The notes beneath the pieces are model-generated. The model was not told where the DNA came from. It worked only from the letters and a program-made list of their open reading frames with translations, and ran no database searches. 64,000 nt of DNA, taken from IMG/VR virus record IMGVR_UViG_3300032053_000040, positions 1-64,000 of that record. One strand, 5' to 3'. This document shows positions 22,561 to 51,044 of this stretch, one piece after another; positions within the stretch are counted from its first letter, which is position 1; the number at the start of each line of letters is the position of its first letter. Source of the DNA: a virus. A program made the position numbers and the translations under genes.

Positions 22561-22579
22561 GGGGAAAAATATAAATACC
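22561..22579 (+). promoter_or_regulatory. BRE-TATA promoter
   Basis: ggggaaaaatataaatacc about 22 nt before the ATG at 22601. Confidence 0.65.
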
Positions 22580-23222: not shown

Positions 23223-24196
23223 CGATTGTTACCAATACTTGCAGAACTATGATAACTAATTTGTAAATAAATAGCGGCAAAACAAAAACCTGGAAATCCC
23301 CAAAAAAAGAGAAAAAACACGTTGAATTTACGTGTTTTATATATATGTATTATTTTGGAATAGGAATAGAAAGTAAATAAGAAAAAAGAAAAGAGACTAA
23401 ACTGGTAACCTTCAAAATACTTATCATACTTGCGAAACTATTTTCTCCCTCCAAAAAGTATAAATATCCCTAATCCACAAATAGTATCTTCATGATACTA
23501 AAGTCTGGTGTCTGGGAAGATCCTATCAGGGTTGCCACCATAACCAGAAGGATCAGGTTTGACGGCCAGAAAAGGCTATCAGACTTTAGTTTCCGAAGGC
23601 GCTCAACCAGAACCCGATAACTTGGTATCCCGGCTCCCCCAAGGCACGGCCCAAAAACCAGGTGTCCGGGTCAAATGTCTTTTTTCGGTTCTAATAGAAT
23701 CCTCAGCCACATTTTTACCCCCCCCATTATATATCACAAAACCAGTAACACTCACAATCACGAGCCTCACACGCAGCACCTACCAATACCGATTTCAAGC
23801 CATTCCTATATACTATGGCGCGTTTTAAATACTCCCCACCAAAAATAATATGCCAATAATAACACACTCCCAAACAATCATAACACTTAACATTTTGAGA
23901 TTAACACAAGACTATCTACCACATAAAATAAACAAACACTAACCCAAATTTTAGCAGCGCCTACCAATAGCGATTTTTGTAAAGACCATTTTTCAAAAAT
24001 TTTTACATAATCACAATAAATAAAGTAAATCCCACCGCTAAAAAATATTATATCAAAACTAATTAAACAAGTTTACAGATGATGAAAAGCCCCCGTCCCC
24101 CGTATCATCTGATTTTAATTTTAAATGTTGCAAGATATCAGTTACTTTTAAATAGCCGTTATGCTCTAGGTTTAGGTTATCCAGAGGTCGAAAATA
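23223..24196. other. AT-rich non-coding region, candidate replication origin
   Basis: About 1 kb without a credible ORF; strong A/C strand skew; imperfect repeats. Confidence 0.45.
23494..23685 (+). ncRNA. Candidate structured RNA A
   Basis: TATA at 23459; stem 23497-23509/23578-23590 with nested stems; T-run near 23680. Confidence 0.45.
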
Positions 24197-28799: not shown

Positions 28800-30815
28800 T
28801 TGAATATGTGGGAGGAATTCCTCTCGGATAGGTATTATCCGAAAGTCTTGGATCTAGCCGAGCATTTCCCGGACAGACGTAGCCTTTACGTTAACTTCCG
28901 GGACGTCGAGATATTCAACCCGGAGATGGCGGATCGTATCCTCGAATCGCCACCACAGGAACTCAGTGATGCCCAAACAGCTCTGCGCTCGGTCGACCTA
29001 CCGCTTGACGTAACCTTCGATGAAAACACGTTTCTTCGTATCCTCAACCTCCCCTTAACCCAACGATACCGTGCCAGCCAGCTCCGAGCGGAACACGTCG
29101 GCAAACTAATAGCTATCGAGGGCATGGTCCGGACGGCGACGGAGATCCGGCCTAAGATAGTCTCAGCGATGTACAGGTGCCAGAGGTGCGGCCAGGAGTT
29201 CTTCAAATCTCAATCCGGCTTCCAGTTTGACGACAAGAACATTCGTTGCGACAACGATGCCTGCGATAGGGCCGGTCCCTTCAAGTTACTCCTCGACCAG
29301 AGTCGTTTCATCGATGCCCAACGGTTGCGTCTGCAAGAATCCATCGAGGATATAGGAGCCCGATCCATCCCCCAGATCCTGGAGATAGAGGCCGAAGGAG
29401 ACATAGCAGGCACAATAAACCCCGGCGACCGCGTAATAGTCAACGGCATAATCACCTCGTACAGGAAACCAGGCAATATTGCCCTATCGAACTACTTCGA
29501 ACTCTACATGAAAGTTGTCTCAATCGAGATGGAAGAACAAGAATATGAAGAGATAGACATCTCCATGCAGGACCAGGCCGAGATCCTGAAGCTGGCCCAA
29601 AAAGGAGACGTCCTCGCCCAGTTCAGGCAATCAATAGCTCCTTCAATATACGGAAACGATGTCATAAAGGAGGCCCTCTCCCTTCAACTCGTTTCCTCGC
29701 CAGAAGTCAAGAACTTTGACGGAACAGTCAACCGGGGCGACATCCATGTCCTACTCGTAGGAGATCCTGGTGTAGCCAAGAGCCAGATGCTCAGGTACAT
29801 GGCAAAGATATCTCCCCGGGGCCTCTACACCTCCGGCAAAGGCACCACGTCGGCCGGGCTCACTGCGACCGCAGTAAAGGACGAGCATGGCGACGGTCGC
29901 TGGACTATAGAAGCCGGCGCTCTCCCCCTATCCGACCGGGGCATCTGTTGTATAGATGAAATGGATAAGATGAACGAGAAAGATAGAGAGGGGCTACACG
30001 AGGGCATGGAGCAACAAACCGTAAGTGTCTCAAAGGCAGGCATCTCCGCGACTCTACGTTGCCGCTGTTCCGTCCTGGCCGCTGCGAACCCTACTGCCGG
30101 AAGGTTCGATCGAGCCGGCATAATAGCCGACCAGATCAATCTCCTCCCCACGCTCTTGAGTCGTTTCGACCTAATTTTTATCTGCCTGGACGTGCCCGAC
30201 AAAGACCAGGACCGCGAACTCGCTGATCATATCCTGAACGTGCGAACCCATCCGCAATCCAAAGCTCCCGTCATAGAACCGGCGCTCCTTCGCAAATACA
30301 TAGCCTACGCAAGGAGAAACATCTTCCCCGAACTCTCGGAAGAAGCCGGAAAGGAGATCAAAGAGTTCTGGCTGTCTTTGAGGGGCCAGTACGGGGGCAA
30401 ACCCAACCAGCCCATTCCAACGACTGCGAGACAACTCGAAGCTCTCTACAGGCTGGCATCCGCGTCTGCAAGGCTCAGACTCTCTGCGACTATCGATGGC
30501 CAGGATGCCAAGAAGGCAATCGACCTGACGGAATACTGCATGAAACAGGTCGGAGTCGACCCGGAGACCGGCCTGTTCGACGTAGGCGTGATAGACCTGG
30601 GAACTCCCAAGACGGAATCGGACAAAACGTTAGTCGTAGAACGCATAATCCGAGAACTAGGTCGGCAATCCCAGGGCAAAGCAGCCGAAGAGGAGATCCT
30701 GGCAGCAGCCTTCCAGCAGGGTATAGACGAGGACCGAGCCAGGAATATCATCTCCAGGATGAGGAGGGATGGGCGATTGGTTGAGCCACGAAACGGGTTC
30801 TACTCGTTTCCATAA
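28800..30815 (+). CDS. mcm: MCM replicative helicase
   Basis: Zinc finger, GDPGVAKSQ Walker A, IDEMDKM Walker B, SRFD arginine finger, TARQLEAL; no intein. Confidence 0.97.
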   Translation: MNMWEEFLSDRYYPKVLDLAEHFPDRRSLYVNFRDVEIFNPEMADRILESPPQELSDAQTALRSVDLPLDVTFDENTFLRILNLPLTQRYRASQLRAEHVGKLIAIEGMVRTATEIRPKIVSAMYRCQRCGQEFFKSQSGFQFDDKNIRCDNDACDRAGPFKLLLDQSRFIDAQRLRLQESIEDIGARSIPQILEIEAEGDIAGTINPGDRVIVNGIITSYRKPGNIALSNYFELYMKVVSIEMEEQEYEEIDISMQDQAEILKLAQKGDVLAQFRQSIAPSIYGNDVIKEALSLQLVSSPEVKNFDGTVNRGDIHVLLVGDPGVAKSQMLRYMAKISPRGLYTSGKGTTSAGLTATAVKDEHGDGRWTIEAGALPLSDRGICCIDEMDKMNEKDREGLHEGMEQQTVSVSKAGISATLRCRCSVLAAANPTAGRFDRAGIIADQINLLPTLLSRFDLIFICLDVPDKDQDRELADHILNVRTHPQSKAPVIEPALLRKYIAYARRNIFPELSEEAGKEIKEFWLSLRGQYGGKPNQPIPTTARQLEALYRLASASARLRLSATIDGQDAKKAIDLTEYCMKQVGVDPETGLFDVGVIDLGTPKTESDKTLVVERIIRELGRQSQGKAAEEEILAAAFQQGIDEDRARNIISRMRRDGRLVEPRNGFYSFP

Positions 30816-32276: not shown

Positions 32277-32313
32277 AGCGAAAAAAATATAAGCTGCGGA
32301 GGTGAACAAGGAT

Positions 32314-32430
32314 ATCAGGATAGGCTACGACAACTAAAGTGACTTCTGGATAAGATCTTGGGGTTCTAATTGTATCACCACATATACCTTCCCCAGGATC
32401 GCTGTCGAGGCCTATCCTGATTTCTTCTCT
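32314..32430 (+). ncRNA. Candidate structured RNA B
   Basis: 12-bp terminal stem atcaggataggc/gcctatcctgat, inner stems, own TATA, TTCTTCTCT tail. Confidence 0.6.
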
Positions 32431-32432
32431 AA

Positions 32433-32711
32433 ATGCGACTCATTAAGCGGATCGATATAGACGTTTTCATGGTAGAGTCGACTGACGGCGACAAGTGCTA
32501 CCGTGTGGAGTACGTGCGGGGTGTCTGGGTCTGCAATTGTACCGGCTTCCTCATGCACGGCATGTACCAGGACAAAGATTGCATCCATATCGCAGTAGTC
32601 AAGCAAAAGTTCCCAGAGATCAGTCGACGCGCATCCACGATCAAAGTCCGTTGCTCCAATCCTCTAGGATACGAGATAGATATGCTGGCCTGGGCCAGAG
32701 GTGAGGTCTAA
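32433..32711 (+). CDS. SWIM zinc-finger protein
   Basis: WVCNC...DCIHI. Confidence 0.8.
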   Translation: MRLIKRIDIDVFMVESTDGDKCYRVEYVRGVWVCNCTGFLMHGMYQDKDCIHIAVVKQKFPEISRRASTIKVRCSNPLGYEIDMLAWARGEV

Positions 32712-32848
32712 AGATGCAGAAGTTAAGGGATGACGGAATGGAAAAAGACAACGATATCCCCGATCTGGTTGAGGTACTTGCGGTACTGATCTGCTGGATT
32801 GGTATGATTGTTTTTGTGTATCTCTCTCGATGAAGGTGGTTAGCAAAC

Positions 32849-33106
32849 ATGTGTAACGTTTCAGGTGTAAGCAGGGCGATGATAGCCCACGGGTTGATAG
32901 AAGCAGTAAAGCAACTGCCAAATGGCAGGAGTTTTCTTCTGAAAGATGTCGTCCAGAACATGAATCCTGGAAATGCAGCGACTCTGCTCAAGTTCCGGGG
33001 TCTTATCAGGTTGGCTAATAGGGGGCCCTACGGTAATCCCCATTCTTGGAGAACCACGGAGAAACACCGGAGGCTTCTTGAATACTGGGAGGAGCGGGGG
33101 GTATGA
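32849..33106 (+). CDS. Hypothetical protein
   Basis: ORF track. Confidence 0.55.
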   Translation: MCNVSGVSRAMIAHGLIEAVKQLPNGRSFLLKDVVQNMNPGNAATLLKFRGLIRLANRGPYGNPHSWRTTEKHRRLLEYWEERGV

Positions 33107-33107
33107 C

Positions 33108-33425
33108 ATGAACCCAGTTGAATCGATGGGTCTACTCGTGATAGGTGGAATCCTAATCTGGATGATTTGCACAAAGATTACAGATAGTCGCGATCTCCCC
33201 TATCCGATGGAACATATCTACCTGAAGAGGCTAGACCCGGAGGTGGGCACGAAAAACCTACCTCCATGGACAATTATTAATGATTTCAAGTGGACGTATT
33301 CAGAGTCAGATCGAGCCTACATCGCGTTTCATAAAAACCAAAAATTCAAGTTACTCCAGATCGCAGCTCGCGGAACCTATGCGGTAGCAGTAGAACGCAT
33401 CTTTGGGTTCGATATGACAATTTAA
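33108..33425 (+). CDS. Membrane-anchored hypothetical protein
   Basis: Likely start MNPVES; TM helix. Confidence 0.55.
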   Translation: MNPVESMGLLVIGGILIWMICTKITDSRDLPYPMEHIYLKRLDPEVGTKNLPPWTIINDFKWTYSESDRAYIAFHKNQKFKLLQIAARGTYAVAVERIFGFDMTI

Positions 33426-33443
33426 TAGAAAAAGAAATAAAGT

Positions 33444-33776
33444 ATGACCGATGCAACTTCCGTTATGAATCCGGTGAAAAAGTTACTGGAGTTGGACAGG
33501 CAGGCCGGCGAGAAGCTCACGGCCAGGCTGGAAGAGGCGGAGGCTTCTGAAGGCGGTAAGAAAACCAAACGAGGGCTTCAGATTGCGGTCTCCCTTGTTC
33601 TCATCCTGGGAGGGTTCTTTTTTATACTCGTTGGTGTGGGGATGATCGCAACGTTAATAGGAATACCTCTCGGTATAGGATTCCTTCTAGCTGGGGGTGC
33701 TCTAATCGCAGCCGGCGCGAAGTTCTGGAATTTCAAACCAGGGACGGAAAAAGATATAAGTTCAGGAGGTGCATAG
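33444..33776 (+). CDS. Membrane protein
   Basis: Long hydrophobic region with TLIGIPLGI. Confidence 0.75.
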   Translation: MTDATSVMNPVKKLLELDRQAGEKLTARLEEAEASEGGKKTKRGLQIAVSLVLILGGFFFILVGVGMIATLIGIPLGIGFLLAGGALIAAGAKFWNFKPGTEKDISSGGA

Positions 33777-33779
33777 AAG

Positions 33780-33945
33780 ACCTGGGACGAGCAGAACAAG
33801 TCGACTTACCCTATTTGTCGAATCCCTTCGATATCTACACCTCCGCTGGCGAAGCGTCCGGTGGCATCCGGGCCGGCGGAAAACCTGGTCGGCTCTTAGA
33901 TCACTCATCCGTTGAGACTGCTCGTCCCGGTTCTTCTTCTCTTTA
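33780..33945 (+). ncRNA. Candidate structured RNA C
   Basis: Terminal stem gggacgagcag/ctgctcgtccc; same promoter motif and TTCTTCTCT tail as RNA B. Confidence 0.6.
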
Positions 33946-33969
33946 GTCTGCGGCAAACAGAGGTGTTTT

Positions 33970-34317
33970 TTGATGGATAACGAAGAGTTCATGCGCATAG
34001 TGGGTTGTCGAATGGCTAAATGTCTATCAGTGCTGGAGCCAAAGGGGAAAGAGTATTCTCGTTCACATGACCGCCTATGGAACTTCCGGCGAGCTGGCGA
34101 GATTCTAGGAAACACTCCAGAAGACGCATGTCTAGGAATGATGGTGAAACATTTCGTCAGCATAATGGATATGGTCCGGGACTGCAACGAGGGCAAATCC
34201 ACCCCACAGGTGACCAAAGATGAGAAGTTCAACGATCTCCATAACTATCTCTACCTGCTCGAAGCCCTAATCAGCGAACACAACAATCCGACGCTGGAAG
34301 ATGATACCGAACTATGA
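33970..34317 (+). CDS. All-alpha nucleotide pyrophosphatase-like protein (nucleotide-modification-associated)
   Basis: KGKEYS...NF...KH...DLHNYLYL pattern. Confidence 0.6.
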   Translation: MMDNEEFMRIVGCRMAKCLSVLEPKGKEYSRSHDRLWNFRRAGEILGNTPEDACLGMMVKHFVSIMDMVRDCNEGKSTPQVTKDEKFNDLHNYLYLLEALISEHNNPTLEDDTEL

Positions 34318-40592: not shown

Positions 40593-40679
40593 GCCGCTTT
40601 AGCTCAGGTAGGCCAGAGCGCCCGGCCTGTACTGAATCAGGAAACCGGAAGATCGCCGGTTCGACTCCGGCAAGCGGCT
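40593..40679 (+). tRNA. tRNA-Thr(TGT) with a 12-nt intron (40632-40643)
   Basis: Acceptor GCCGCTT/AAGCGGC with U73, D arm GCTC/GAGC, T arm GCCGG-TTCGACT-CCGGC, CCTG/CAGG splice helix; C at position 33. Confidence 0.8.
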
Positions 40680-42681: not shown

Positions 42682-42966
42682 GTTCAGGCCAAGTCTGCTT
42701 TGATTTTCCCCAGTTGGTACACGATACTTAACACGGGAGCAAGGTTGGTGTCTCAACCGGGGGTCTCCATTATAAAAAAATATCTAGCGATCTCGTTTAA
42801 AATCGATTTTAAGACACTTTTTTTCATCCCCCCACCTCCAATTACCTTTTCTGATTTTTCATGGCCTTAAATCAGATTTAAATGAACCCATAGCGGCGAC
42901 TGTGTTTTAGCACCAAAACGCAACAGTTTCCATCTGATTCTGAGATAGAACGATCATCAGAAAACT

Positions 42967-43366
42967 GTCAACTACCCCACCCTGAAGGATGTGGCTTGCG
43001 ACTACGCAAAAAGTCGTGTCGCTATCGGCTGGTTGACTCCAGATGGCGAATCCTGGGATTATTCCGGCAGCCTGCTTTGGACGGAGAGCTTGACGCCGTT
43101 AAGTGGTTAAGTCGTTTCTGCTTAACTCGGCCCAGATCCTTGCGGATCTCATGCCTTCCAAAGCGATTGATTTCCGTTCACCGTCTCTCTTCGGTTGTCC
43201 GAAGTGCCCTACCTTCTTGCGAAGGCGGAAATCTGTTTCCTGGCCTGTTACCAGGGAACTATAGAGATATTATGCTTAATGGTATATTAAGGTATTTGCG
43301 GCAACGGTGGGGCCAATTCATCCCCGCCCTGAAGGATGGGGTCTTCTTGGACACGGAGAGAAAACT
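42967..43366 (-). mobile_element. Non-autonomous IS200/IS605 element (no ORF, omega-RNA-like)
   Basis: Subterminal hairpins gtcaactaccccaccctgaaggatgtggcttg and ccaattcatccccgccctgaaggatggggtcttcttgg; removing it restores the promoter seen at 47874. Confidence 0.8.
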
Positions 43367-43461
43367 ATAAATACCTACCATGTATATATATCATAACCAA
43401 TCATTTTATCCCCTAATAGGTTGGGGGATAGGTTGGCTAAAAAGGAGGCGAAAAGGCGATG
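43359..43461 (+). promoter_or_regulatory. 103-bp promoter-leader-RBS repeat, copy 1
   Basis: agaaaactataaatacc...aaggaggcgaaaaggcgATG; one mismatch versus copy 2. Confidence 0.9.
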
Positions 43462-43662
43462 AAATACCAGGTTGAGGTCCAGACTGTAAGGGGTCTCAAA
43501 TTCAGCGGGAAAGTAGAGGTTGACATCCCACCAAGTAGAGGCGTAAAGCTCCCCGGATTCAGAAGCGCGATTCCGGTCAAGACCTTGAGGGCCATAAAGA
43601 GCCAGGCCAAAATACAGCTCGGCGAGGAGATCAGGGCCTTCCGAGTTCTGGACGTGGTCTGA
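43459..43662 (+). CDS. Small hypothetical protein
   Basis: Starts at the repeat's ATG. Confidence 0.7.
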   Translation: MKYQVEVQTVRGLKFSGKVEVDIPPSRGVKLPGFRSAIPVKTLRAIKSQAKIQLGEEIRAFRVLDVV

Positions 43663-47873: not shown

Positions 47874-47976
47874 AGAAAACTATAAATACCTACCATGTAT
47901 ATATATCATAACCAATCATTTTATCCCCTAATAGGTGGGGGGATAGGTTGGCTAAAAAGGAGGCGAAAAGGCGATG
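47874..47976 (+). promoter_or_regulatory. 103-bp promoter-leader-RBS repeat, copy 2
   Basis: Near-identical to 43359-43461. Confidence 0.9.
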
Positions 47977-48312
47977 GCCTATAATCAAAAGGATGACGTT
48001 TACATAATAGATGCCAAGGGCAAAAAGGCGATCAAAGAGCAGCTCAAGGATGCAATTCTCTGTGCTGGAGCGGATCACGTAACCTTCAAGCGCGATGGGA
48101 CGATAGAGGCCAAGTTCAGCTATTTCTACAGGATGGGGAATACCCCAAAAAGCGTATGCTATAAGCTGACAAGAGCAGTTCCGGGCCTGAAGGTTGTGGA
48201 TGCTTGGGACGATTTCGCTAGGTGGCCCAAGACGAGCTATTTCCATATACTGGTGTTCTATGGAGAGCAGGAGAAGTACAACGAGATCATTGCAAAGAGG
48301 TGTGGAAATTGA
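47974..48312 (+). CDS. Hypothetical protein
   Basis: Starts at the repeat's ATG. Confidence 0.7.
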   Translation: MAYNQKDDVYIIDAKGKKAIKEQLKDAILCAGADHVTFKRDGTIEAKFSYFYRMGNTPKSVCYKLTRAVPGLKVVDAWDDFARWPKTSYFHILVFYGEQEKYNEIIAKRCGN

Positions 48313-50647: not shown

Positions 50648-50965
50648 ACCGCTACGACTCAATCCTGGCCGGCCTGCAATGTCTCACAGACCGGCAGCTA
50701 TCTTCTCTGGTCCTGGAGATCCGGGCGGAGCAGATGAGAAGAGAAGACGAGAAACACGTCCTGGCCGTGGAGCACTATCTGTCAAAACCGAAAGAGGCAA
50801 CGGCATGAAATTCGAGGCCAGGATCAAACGCAAAGGCTACACCCGGATCATAACACTCAATGAAGCCAACGAGCACGATGCCATGATGGAGGCTGCACAG
50901 AAGGGACGTGTCCTGTGGATCAAACAAGTACATTAATATCCGATAAACCAATATTTATTTCCGTG

Positions 50966-51016
50966 GGCAGCGTCCGTCAAGGCGGCGCAAGGCCGGTTCG
51001 AATCCGGCGGCTGTCG
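50966..51016 (+). ncRNA. tRNA-like minihelix (acceptor stem and T arm only)
   Basis: ggcagc/gctgtc stem stacked on GCCGG-TTCGAAT-CCGGC. Confidence 0.45.
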
Positions 51017-51044
51017 TGGCCCAGAAGGGCCAAGGTGACAAAAA

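Follow-up and report, generated by a model that had tools for sequence, protein, structure and literature searches.

Two paralogous promoter-headed structured elements in the early region of a tailed archaeal virus, candidate regulatory RNAs

Why do two gaps between genes of a single viral genome begin with the same 25 nucleotides, fold behind long closing helices of unrelated sequence and end in a pyrimidine-rich tail? The question is raised by two loci, element 1 (E1, in the gap 32277-32432) and element 2 (E2, in the gap 33777-33972), of the IMG/VR virus record IMGVR_UViG_3300032053_000040, of which we have analysed the first 64 kb (64,000 nucleotides, called here the window). The parent record has 77,291 bp with direct terminal repeats and is, to judge by its sequence, the complete 77-kb genome of an uncultured tailed virus of archaea from sediment. 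This assignment follows from the encoded MCM helicase (298 bits with the MCM P-loop domain, plus OB and lid domains), from the direct terminal repeats and from the genes lying on one strand, all the sizeable open reading frames (ORFs) of the window being on the + strand. A preliminary description of the letters had proposed an undescribed viral small RNA (sRNA) family with a constant scaffold and a variable interior. We consider it real that E1 and E2 are two paralogous, non-coding, strongly structured and promoter-headed modules of a new and very narrowly distributed family. The explanation that we favour, with confidence evenly divided for and against, is that they would be two co-regulated transcription units making structured RNAs, with riboregulation as their likeliest job.

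Both elements are headed by the motif GAAAAARATATAAGNTNNGGAGGTG, found exactly twice in the window (Table 1), with no third copy in the entire genome and none expected by chance in 100 shuffles. Within it, an A-rich run resembling the B recognition element (BRE) and a TATA-like box are followed by the heptamer GGAGGTG. Other BRE/TATA-like 8-mers of this genome lie 23-27 nt ahead of leaderless ATGs at 22570, 25519 (a 201-aa gene) and 52760 (a 222-aa gene), which is the layout expected for leaderless archaeal mRNAs. When the same spacing is applied to the two motifs, the starts are predicted at about 32314-32318 and 33784, and therefore at the bases of the closing helices, where the pyrimidine-purine steps T32313/A32314 and T33783/G33784 coincide with them. 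Both elements thus have a BRE/TATA sequence at about -26 from the predicted start, spaced as in the other promoters of the genome, and the shared promoter and the TATA-then-stem layout proposed in the preliminary description are both supported by this spacing. A scan for sigma-70 promoters and terminators was uninformative for an archaeal virus.

The placement of the starts leaves GGAGGTG between the TATA box and the start, outside the primary RNA. This heptamer is not a general Shine-Dalgarno (SD) mark of the virus, in which it has 9 copies on the + strand (3 of them preceding start codons) and 10 on the - strand. It is strictly conserved in both motifs, next to a diverged 4-nt spacer. A reasonable guess is that it serves as the operator for a neighbouring winged-helix regulator; two genes for such regulators sit just upstream of the elements, and winged-helix regulators and a PDDEXK nuclease flank the two-element region.

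The long-range stems are exact over 12 bp in E1 (ATCAGGATAGGC at 32314-25 with GCCTATCCTGAT at 32410-21) and 11 bp in E2 (GGGACGAGCAG at 33784-94 with CTGCTCGTCCC at 33918-28). Counted with imperfections, their arms of 22 nt (E1) and 20 nt (E2) top the list of 16 inverted repeats in the 64 kb (I1 and I2). Both elements fold far better than shuffled sequences, as none of 200 shuffles folded as well as either of them. The + strand of E1 reaches -49 kcal/mol (z -5.8, and down to -6.2 across folds) and that of E2 -72.7 kcal/mol (z -5.55, versus -2.5 on the - strand). Minimum free energy (MFE) and centroid structures agree for both, and in both the pyrimidine tail pairs back with a purine run (AGGA, AGAAGA) just 5' of the stem. 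Neither element holds a credible ORF and the substitutions lack codon periodicity. A coding reading of E2 was also tried and rejected; its 48-aa GTG frame is Arg-rich, and of 8 substitutions examined there only 3 leave the amino acid unchanged. Rfam has no family on either element at the gathering score or even at E<=10, the sole gathering-level match of the window being a tRNA at 40593.

Table 1. Positions of the elements, their parts and a possible protein partner in the window
Feature	Position	Strand	Description
E1 promoter motif	32280-32304	+	A-rich BRE-like run; TATA-like AATATAAG 32286-32293; GGAGGTG 32298-32304
E1 folded RNA (predicted)	32309-32430	+	P1 32309-12/32423-26; P2 32314-26/32409-21; P3 32328-32/32403-07; P4 32354-63/32391-400; tail TTTCTTCTCT
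E1 apical loop	32364-90	+	exposed AUCACC 32374-79
E2 promoter motif	33747-33771	+	TATA-like GATATAAG 33753-33760; GGAGGTG 33765-33771
E2 folded RNA (predicted)	33775-33943	+	P1 33775-80/33932-37; P2 33782-94/33918-30; P3 33799-806/33887-94; CACCUCC at 33838-44; tail TTCTTCTTCTCTTT
E2 hairpin P4	33816-22/33827-33	+	UCCC loop
E2 hairpin P5	33842-50/33872-80	+	inner helix 33858-61/33868-71
E2 helix P6	33904-07/33913-16	+	sixth helix of the E2 fold
Hfq-like (Sm-fold) protein, 71 aa	26884-27099	+	possible partner, by inference only

Relatives were sought by protein-based locus searches, by motif scans of IMG/VR and of a metagenome collection, in Logan contigs and by a DNA search of 401 archaeal genomes. 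All of these routes converged on just two close relatives: L003, whose contig type is that of L060, and L048. With the window they make up a comparison set of three near-identical genomes of one virus lineage. Beyond these two relatives, scanning IMG/VR and the metagenome collection for the motif gave chance SD-type matches only, blastn against a phage collection gave no match, and the search of the 401 archaeal genomes gave just 25-32-nt matches with weak E-values. An IMG/VR search with the MCM recovered L003 plus L004 (39% identical), and the PDDEXK gene led to L042. Long-range stems like those of E1 and E2 are absent from the distant MCM relatives L004, L079, L080 and L042; a single candidate, in L079, falls within coding DNA. 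Among named genomes the nearest MCMs are just 41% identical to that of the window, and the 92-aa protein encoded next to E1 has no homologues at all in protein searches. The runs that carry window DNA are sediment metagenomes only, with no RNA run among them.

E1 and E2 are both retained in L003/L060 and in L048, at positions unchanged across the three variants. In the closing helix of E1, T32321C together with A32414G is a compensatory change from U-A to C-G, A32355G keeps its pair as G-U (AU to GU), and the other substitutions fall in loops, including a 2-bp mini-helix of the MFE structure that the centroid fold leaves open. The 13 variable positions of E2 comprise 6 unpaired, 3 pair-preserving (two G-U to G-C and one C-G to U-G) and 4 pair-breaking ones, all the breaks being at helix ends. 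Taken together, the two elements show 1 compensatory pair, 4 pair-preserving changes and 4 helix-end breaks, a pattern compatible with the predicted structures. As covariation evidence it would be supportive but weak, because it comes from three near-identical genomes. The E2 core (33807-33883, 77 nt) is invariant between the window and L003, while adjoining coding DNA is 95.7% identical. Just inside the stems, the similar inner motifs of the preliminary description (aactaaagtgactt and aacaagtcgactt) are present, but they turned out to be the most variable part among the relatives. The scaffold that the two copies share consists only of the promoter motif, a pyrimidine tail and a closing helix that is unrelated in sequence between them; the paralogous folded pair stands, and the wider claim of a family is restricted because there are two copies in one lineage of three near-identical genomes.

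The motif itself also varies. The E1 motif of L003 carries A32284G and A32289T. The same TATA position (32289 in E1, 33756 in E2) is A in both window elements and T in both L003 elements, L048 being mixed, and this shared state could reflect parallel change, gene conversion or recombination between the promoters. In E2, L048 has a window-like motif and an L003-like interior, and looks recombinant inside the element.

The genes around the elements leave little space between them. Gene gains, losses and swaps among the variants end at the element edges 32279, 33749 and 33935. The 68-aa zinc-ribbon-like ORF upstream of E1 is missing from the relatives (junction 32060/32279), and the block conserved with them starts at 32279. 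The E2 motif covers the last eight codons of an upstream 110-aa membrane protein, just ahead of its stop. In L003 this upstream gene is swapped and similarity is back at 33749, the replacement 207-aa ORF terminating in the same motif-encoded residues. Past 33935 the three variants have three different sequences. Because the differences in gene content stop at these edges, the promoter motif, the fold and the T-rich tail must be inherited together, and since this conserved unit extends from the A-rich/TATA motif to the T-rich tail, the promoter belongs to the elements. The coincidence of borders is partly trivial, since whole-gene indels end in intergenic DNA anyway.

These borders bring in one alternative, in which E1 and E2 would be regulatory or recombination cassettes that insulate gene modules and anchor gene shuffling, their RNA product being functionless. 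The model is provided by the PeSLs of T4-type phages, promoter-early stem-loop cassettes that border gene indels (Arbiol et al. 2010, PMC2839356). In an 8-kb hyperplastic region, 3 of about 7 gene-content junctions abut element edges, the upstream genes take their stop or last codons from the motif, as in T4-type PeSLs (PMC2839356), and the apparent recombination of L048 within E2 fits as well. The location at gene-indel borders is thus found here, but the many dispersed copies of a promoter with a short hairpin are not; there are only two copies, with multi-helix interiors of 84-123 nt, versus short terminator hairpins in about 50 copies per genome. The unrelated stem sequences, the G-U pairs and the + strand bias of E2, its 77-nt core identical in the window and L003, and the partial triviality of the border coincidence also argue against such cassettes, which we hold to be improbable.

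The 3' ends of the elements bear on another alternative. Oligo-T runs of at least 5 are the established intrinsic termination signal of archaeal RNA polymerase. The common TTCTTCTCT end is present in both window elements (32422-30 and 33934-42), and that of E1 is the same, TTTCTTCTCT, in all variants, but E2 of the relatives has instead TTCTTTTT(T) right after the closing helix, namely TTCTTTTT (T5) in L003 and TTCTTTTTT (T6) in L048. In the window, where E2 is followed by a 114-aa gene that lacks a promoter of its own, the tail is TTCTTCTTCTCTTT; L003 and L048, with their T5 and T6 runs, lack that gene. The window E2 tail is consistent with a leakier transcript end.

E1 and E2 could be cis-acting 5' leaders or attenuators, in which a folded leader and a T-rich tract set termination versus entry into the downstream operon. 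A factor from the virus or the host may act on the leader, or the leader RNA may modify the polymerase; two operons would be controlled in parallel and the small RNA would be a by-product. The genes downstream of both elements have no TATA of their own, and no paralogy was detected between the two sets. E1 fits especially well. The ATG of the 92-aa ORF behind it (32433) lies 6-7 nt past the element without an SD; the next gene after E2 (ATG 33973) has its own GAGGTG. The change of the E2 tail with the presence of the 114-aa gene, the two winged-helix regulators just upstream and the re-use of promoter-plus-leader cassettes elsewhere in this virus (43359-43463 and 47874-47978, each ahead of a different gene) point in the same direction. 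Nevertheless, no alternative terminator or antiterminator fold is evident, MFE and centroid structures being in agreement, and attenuation of such a type has not been established for archaea. Closing helices that link the two ends of an RNA are seen more typically in stable free RNAs, and the T5 and T6 runs right after the helix in L003 and L048 would stop many transcripts. We see leaders as a serious but somewhat unlikely alternative.

The riboregulatory reading draws on what the interiors expose. The anti-SD-like words of the preliminary description are all there (ATCACC at 32374, CACCTCC at 33838 and GATCAC at 33899), giving 3 sites of anti-SD-like 6-mers in 302 nt versus 0.44 expected (P about 0.01, calculated post hoc). 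In the structural ensemble the unpaired probability is 0.95 for AUCACC and 0.99 for UCCC, and the CACC part of CACCUCC is also largely unpaired. In addition, the virus encodes a small Hfq-like protein. By sequence it matches M. jannaschii Hfq in the PDB with an E-value of 0.0015-0.003; against the Pfam Hfq family it scores 14.5 bits, under the cut-off of 27, which its distant relatives P0008 and P0009 pass. The AlphaFold2 model has a pLDDT (predicted local distance difference test) of 80.6, and the Foldseek matches listed for it are all Hfq, M. jannaschii Hfq superposing with a root-mean-square deviation of 1.1 A over 51 residues. The presence of this protein makes a riboregulatory role for RNAs made of a helix plus a U-rich tail more plausible, although we can only infer its link to the two elements.

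According to the favoured explanation, each element would be a self-contained archaeal transcription unit, with its BRE/TATA promoter inside the shared 25-nt motif, which would combine a promoter with an operator-like sequence. Transcription would start ~23-24 nt downstream, at A32314-G32318 and at G33784, the first bases of the closing helices, and the products would be compact + strand RNAs of ~115 nt and ~155 nt with their 5' and 3' ends paired. The U/C-rich 3' tail would end part of the transcripts, the remainder reading through into the promoterless downstream genes, and both RNAs, as paralogues, would be switched on together. Their likeliest job would be riboregulation, through pairing of the exposed loops (AUCACC, CACC(UCC) and UCCC) with purine-rich ribosome-binding sites, the viral Hfq-like protein possibly assisting by binding the U-rich tail. 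A bolder version, to which we give little credence, is a complete riboregulation kit of an archaeal virus made of its own Hfq-like chaperone and a co-regulated sRNA pair. In it the loops AUCACC, CACCUCC and UCCC would mimic the 3' end of 16S rRNA, the viral Hfq would load the RNAs by way of their U-rich tails, and ribosome binding on host or early viral mRNAs would be blocked during takeover.

Several observations weigh against the transcription-unit and riboregulation explanation. E1 folds equally well on the + and - strands and its conservation does not exceed that of the genes on either side, and the covariation depends on one compensatory pair among three near-identical genomes. A start of transcription at P2 would preclude the outer helix P1, and the conserved GGAGGTG, for which the explanation does not account, would lie upstream of the predicted start. 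The window tails lack a T5 run, so that termination there may be weak, and the 92-aa gene 6 nt after E1 depends on read-through, which is more leader-like than expected of an sRNA gene. Finally, the longest perfect complements of the elements in the virus genome are 12 and 11 nt, no better than in shuffles. The data are matched about equally well by a leader or attenuator, by a promoter/stem-loop cassette and by a trans-acting sRNA. The loci as first described are confirmed as an observation, and their interpretation is partly supported.

A miniature inverted-repeat transposable element (MITE), or another DNA-level palindromic element, would also have long terminal inverted repeats enclosing a non-coding interior, and this virus holds a TnpB gene and a ~400-bp mobile element elsewhere. 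However, the repeat-like arms of the two loci share no sequence, no target-site duplication or flanking direct repeat is visible and the position is fixed in all three variants. Searches of the genome, IMG/VR, the metagenome collection and the 401 archaeal genomes gave no further copies; the promoter motif lies outside the repeat, and E2 contains G-U pairs. With neither terminal inverted repeats shared by multiple copies nor target-site duplications at variable sites, we reject this identity, which was already named in the preliminary description as one that would overturn its proposal, as very improbable.

Other identities were tried and rejected. A retron msr/msd would be expected with a reverse transcriptase, and the complete genome has no RVT_1 match, positive controls being detected. 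P1 and P2 meet at a 1x1 mismatch (U/U or C/U) and not at the bulge-helix-bulge that flanks certain archaeal RNAs, in which a 4-bp helix at the foot of the closing stem separates two 3-nt bulges. For C/D-box or H/ACA sRNAs, reading the two loci revealed neither C (RUGAUGA) and D (CUGA) boxes nor an ACA box with a pseudouridylation pocket common to both, and Rfam gave no snoRNA match on the elements. A split ribosome-binding site of the type of T4 genes 38 and 25 fits E1 only, where P1 brings SD and AUG to within 10 nt of each other; E2 is followed by no such start codon in any variant. Translational bypassing has no landing frame.

The two elements sit in the early/replication module of this MCM-encoding tailed archaeal virus, whose window also encodes TnpB, a ParB-methylase and DUF5131. 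The TnpB gene (IS605 OrfB, with a Cas12f-like TNB domain) is near the left end of the virus genome (1059-2270). The MCM gene is continuous in the window at 30017-30021; at this point all 3 of the relative contigs fetched (L003, L048 and L060) have an in-frame insert of 359 aa with a LAGLIDADG domain (1487-2563 in L003), which is probably an intein. A ~400-bp non-coding element at 42947-43371 has matching sequence at other places in the relatives (L048 1-319 and 6677-6753; L060 11876-11953), one of the matches being just downstream of E2 in L048 (77% identical) and another upstream of the MCM gene (92%). These scattered matches suggest recent mobility. The duplicated cassette at 43359 and 47874, whose copies are identical in 102 of 103 nt, contains TATAAATA, a hairpin and the SD AAGGAGGC. 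A strong BRE/TATA (AAAAAGTATAAATA) at 23459-23690 is followed 25 nt later by what is either a 42-aa ORF without a leader or a folded RNA, the latter with a 14-bp long-range stem, a T6 end and a fold z of only -2.5. Around this site extends 1 kb of AT-rich, non-coding DNA (23223-24196), which may contain the replication origin. A tRNA-like fragment at 50960-51031, with a canonical T arm (GGTTCGAATCC), was called neither by ARAGORN nor by Rfam.

Regulatory RNAs encoded by viruses have hardly been described for archaeal viruses, and the control of transcription and translation in viruses of methanogen-type archaea is largely uncharted. Two robustly predicted promoter-headed RNAs without a database match and a viral Hfq-like protein would unite promoter, RNA and chaperone in a compact system. 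Should the RNAs exist, they would reveal the means by which a virus of archaea sets the timing of its early operons or represses translation; should E1 and E2 be only leaders or cassettes, they would still identify the promoter class of this virus group and the joints at which it recombines. Their general importance is unproven, given a tiny lineage of three near-identical genomes.

Among known systems, the sRNAs sRNA41 and sRNA162 of Methanosarcina mazei are archaeal intergenic sRNAs that mask ribosome-binding sites. They resemble the predicted RNAs of E1 and E2 in that each is driven by a BRE/TATA promoter of its own, measures 100-200 nt, folds stably and exposes loops rich in pyrimidines that can pair with an SD. 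In contrast, E1 and E2 are virus-encoded, are paralogous to each other, share a 25-nt promoter motif and have a long helix closing the 5' and 3' ends, and no relationship by sequence or in Rfam was found for them. The put RNAs of phage HK022 (putL and putR), ~70-nt two-hairpin RNAs that act on the bacterial RNA polymerase, are also two paralogous structured RNAs just behind two early promoters, similar in architecture and diverged in sequence. No similarity to them was found, and antitermination by RNA is not known from archaea. Like E1 and E2, the PeSLs are intergenic, combine a promoter with a stem-loop, begin in an A/T-rich stretch at the stop codon of the gene before them and lie in an early region that is hyperplastic, where they border genes that have been inserted, deleted or replaced (PMC2839356). 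They differ by their bacterial sigma-70 promoters and their short G/C hairpins, about 50 per genome (PMC2839356), whereas here two copies have archaeal TATA promoters and a 115-155-nt multi-helix fold downstream of the predicted start. Finally, in comparison with bacterial Hfq-dependent sRNAs, including those of prophages, the setting is an archaeal virus, the window tail is a U/C mixture and the putative Hfq-like partner is predicted from sequence and a structural model, but the likeness extends to a terminal helix followed by a U-rich tail and to a protein of Hfq fold encoded in the same genome.

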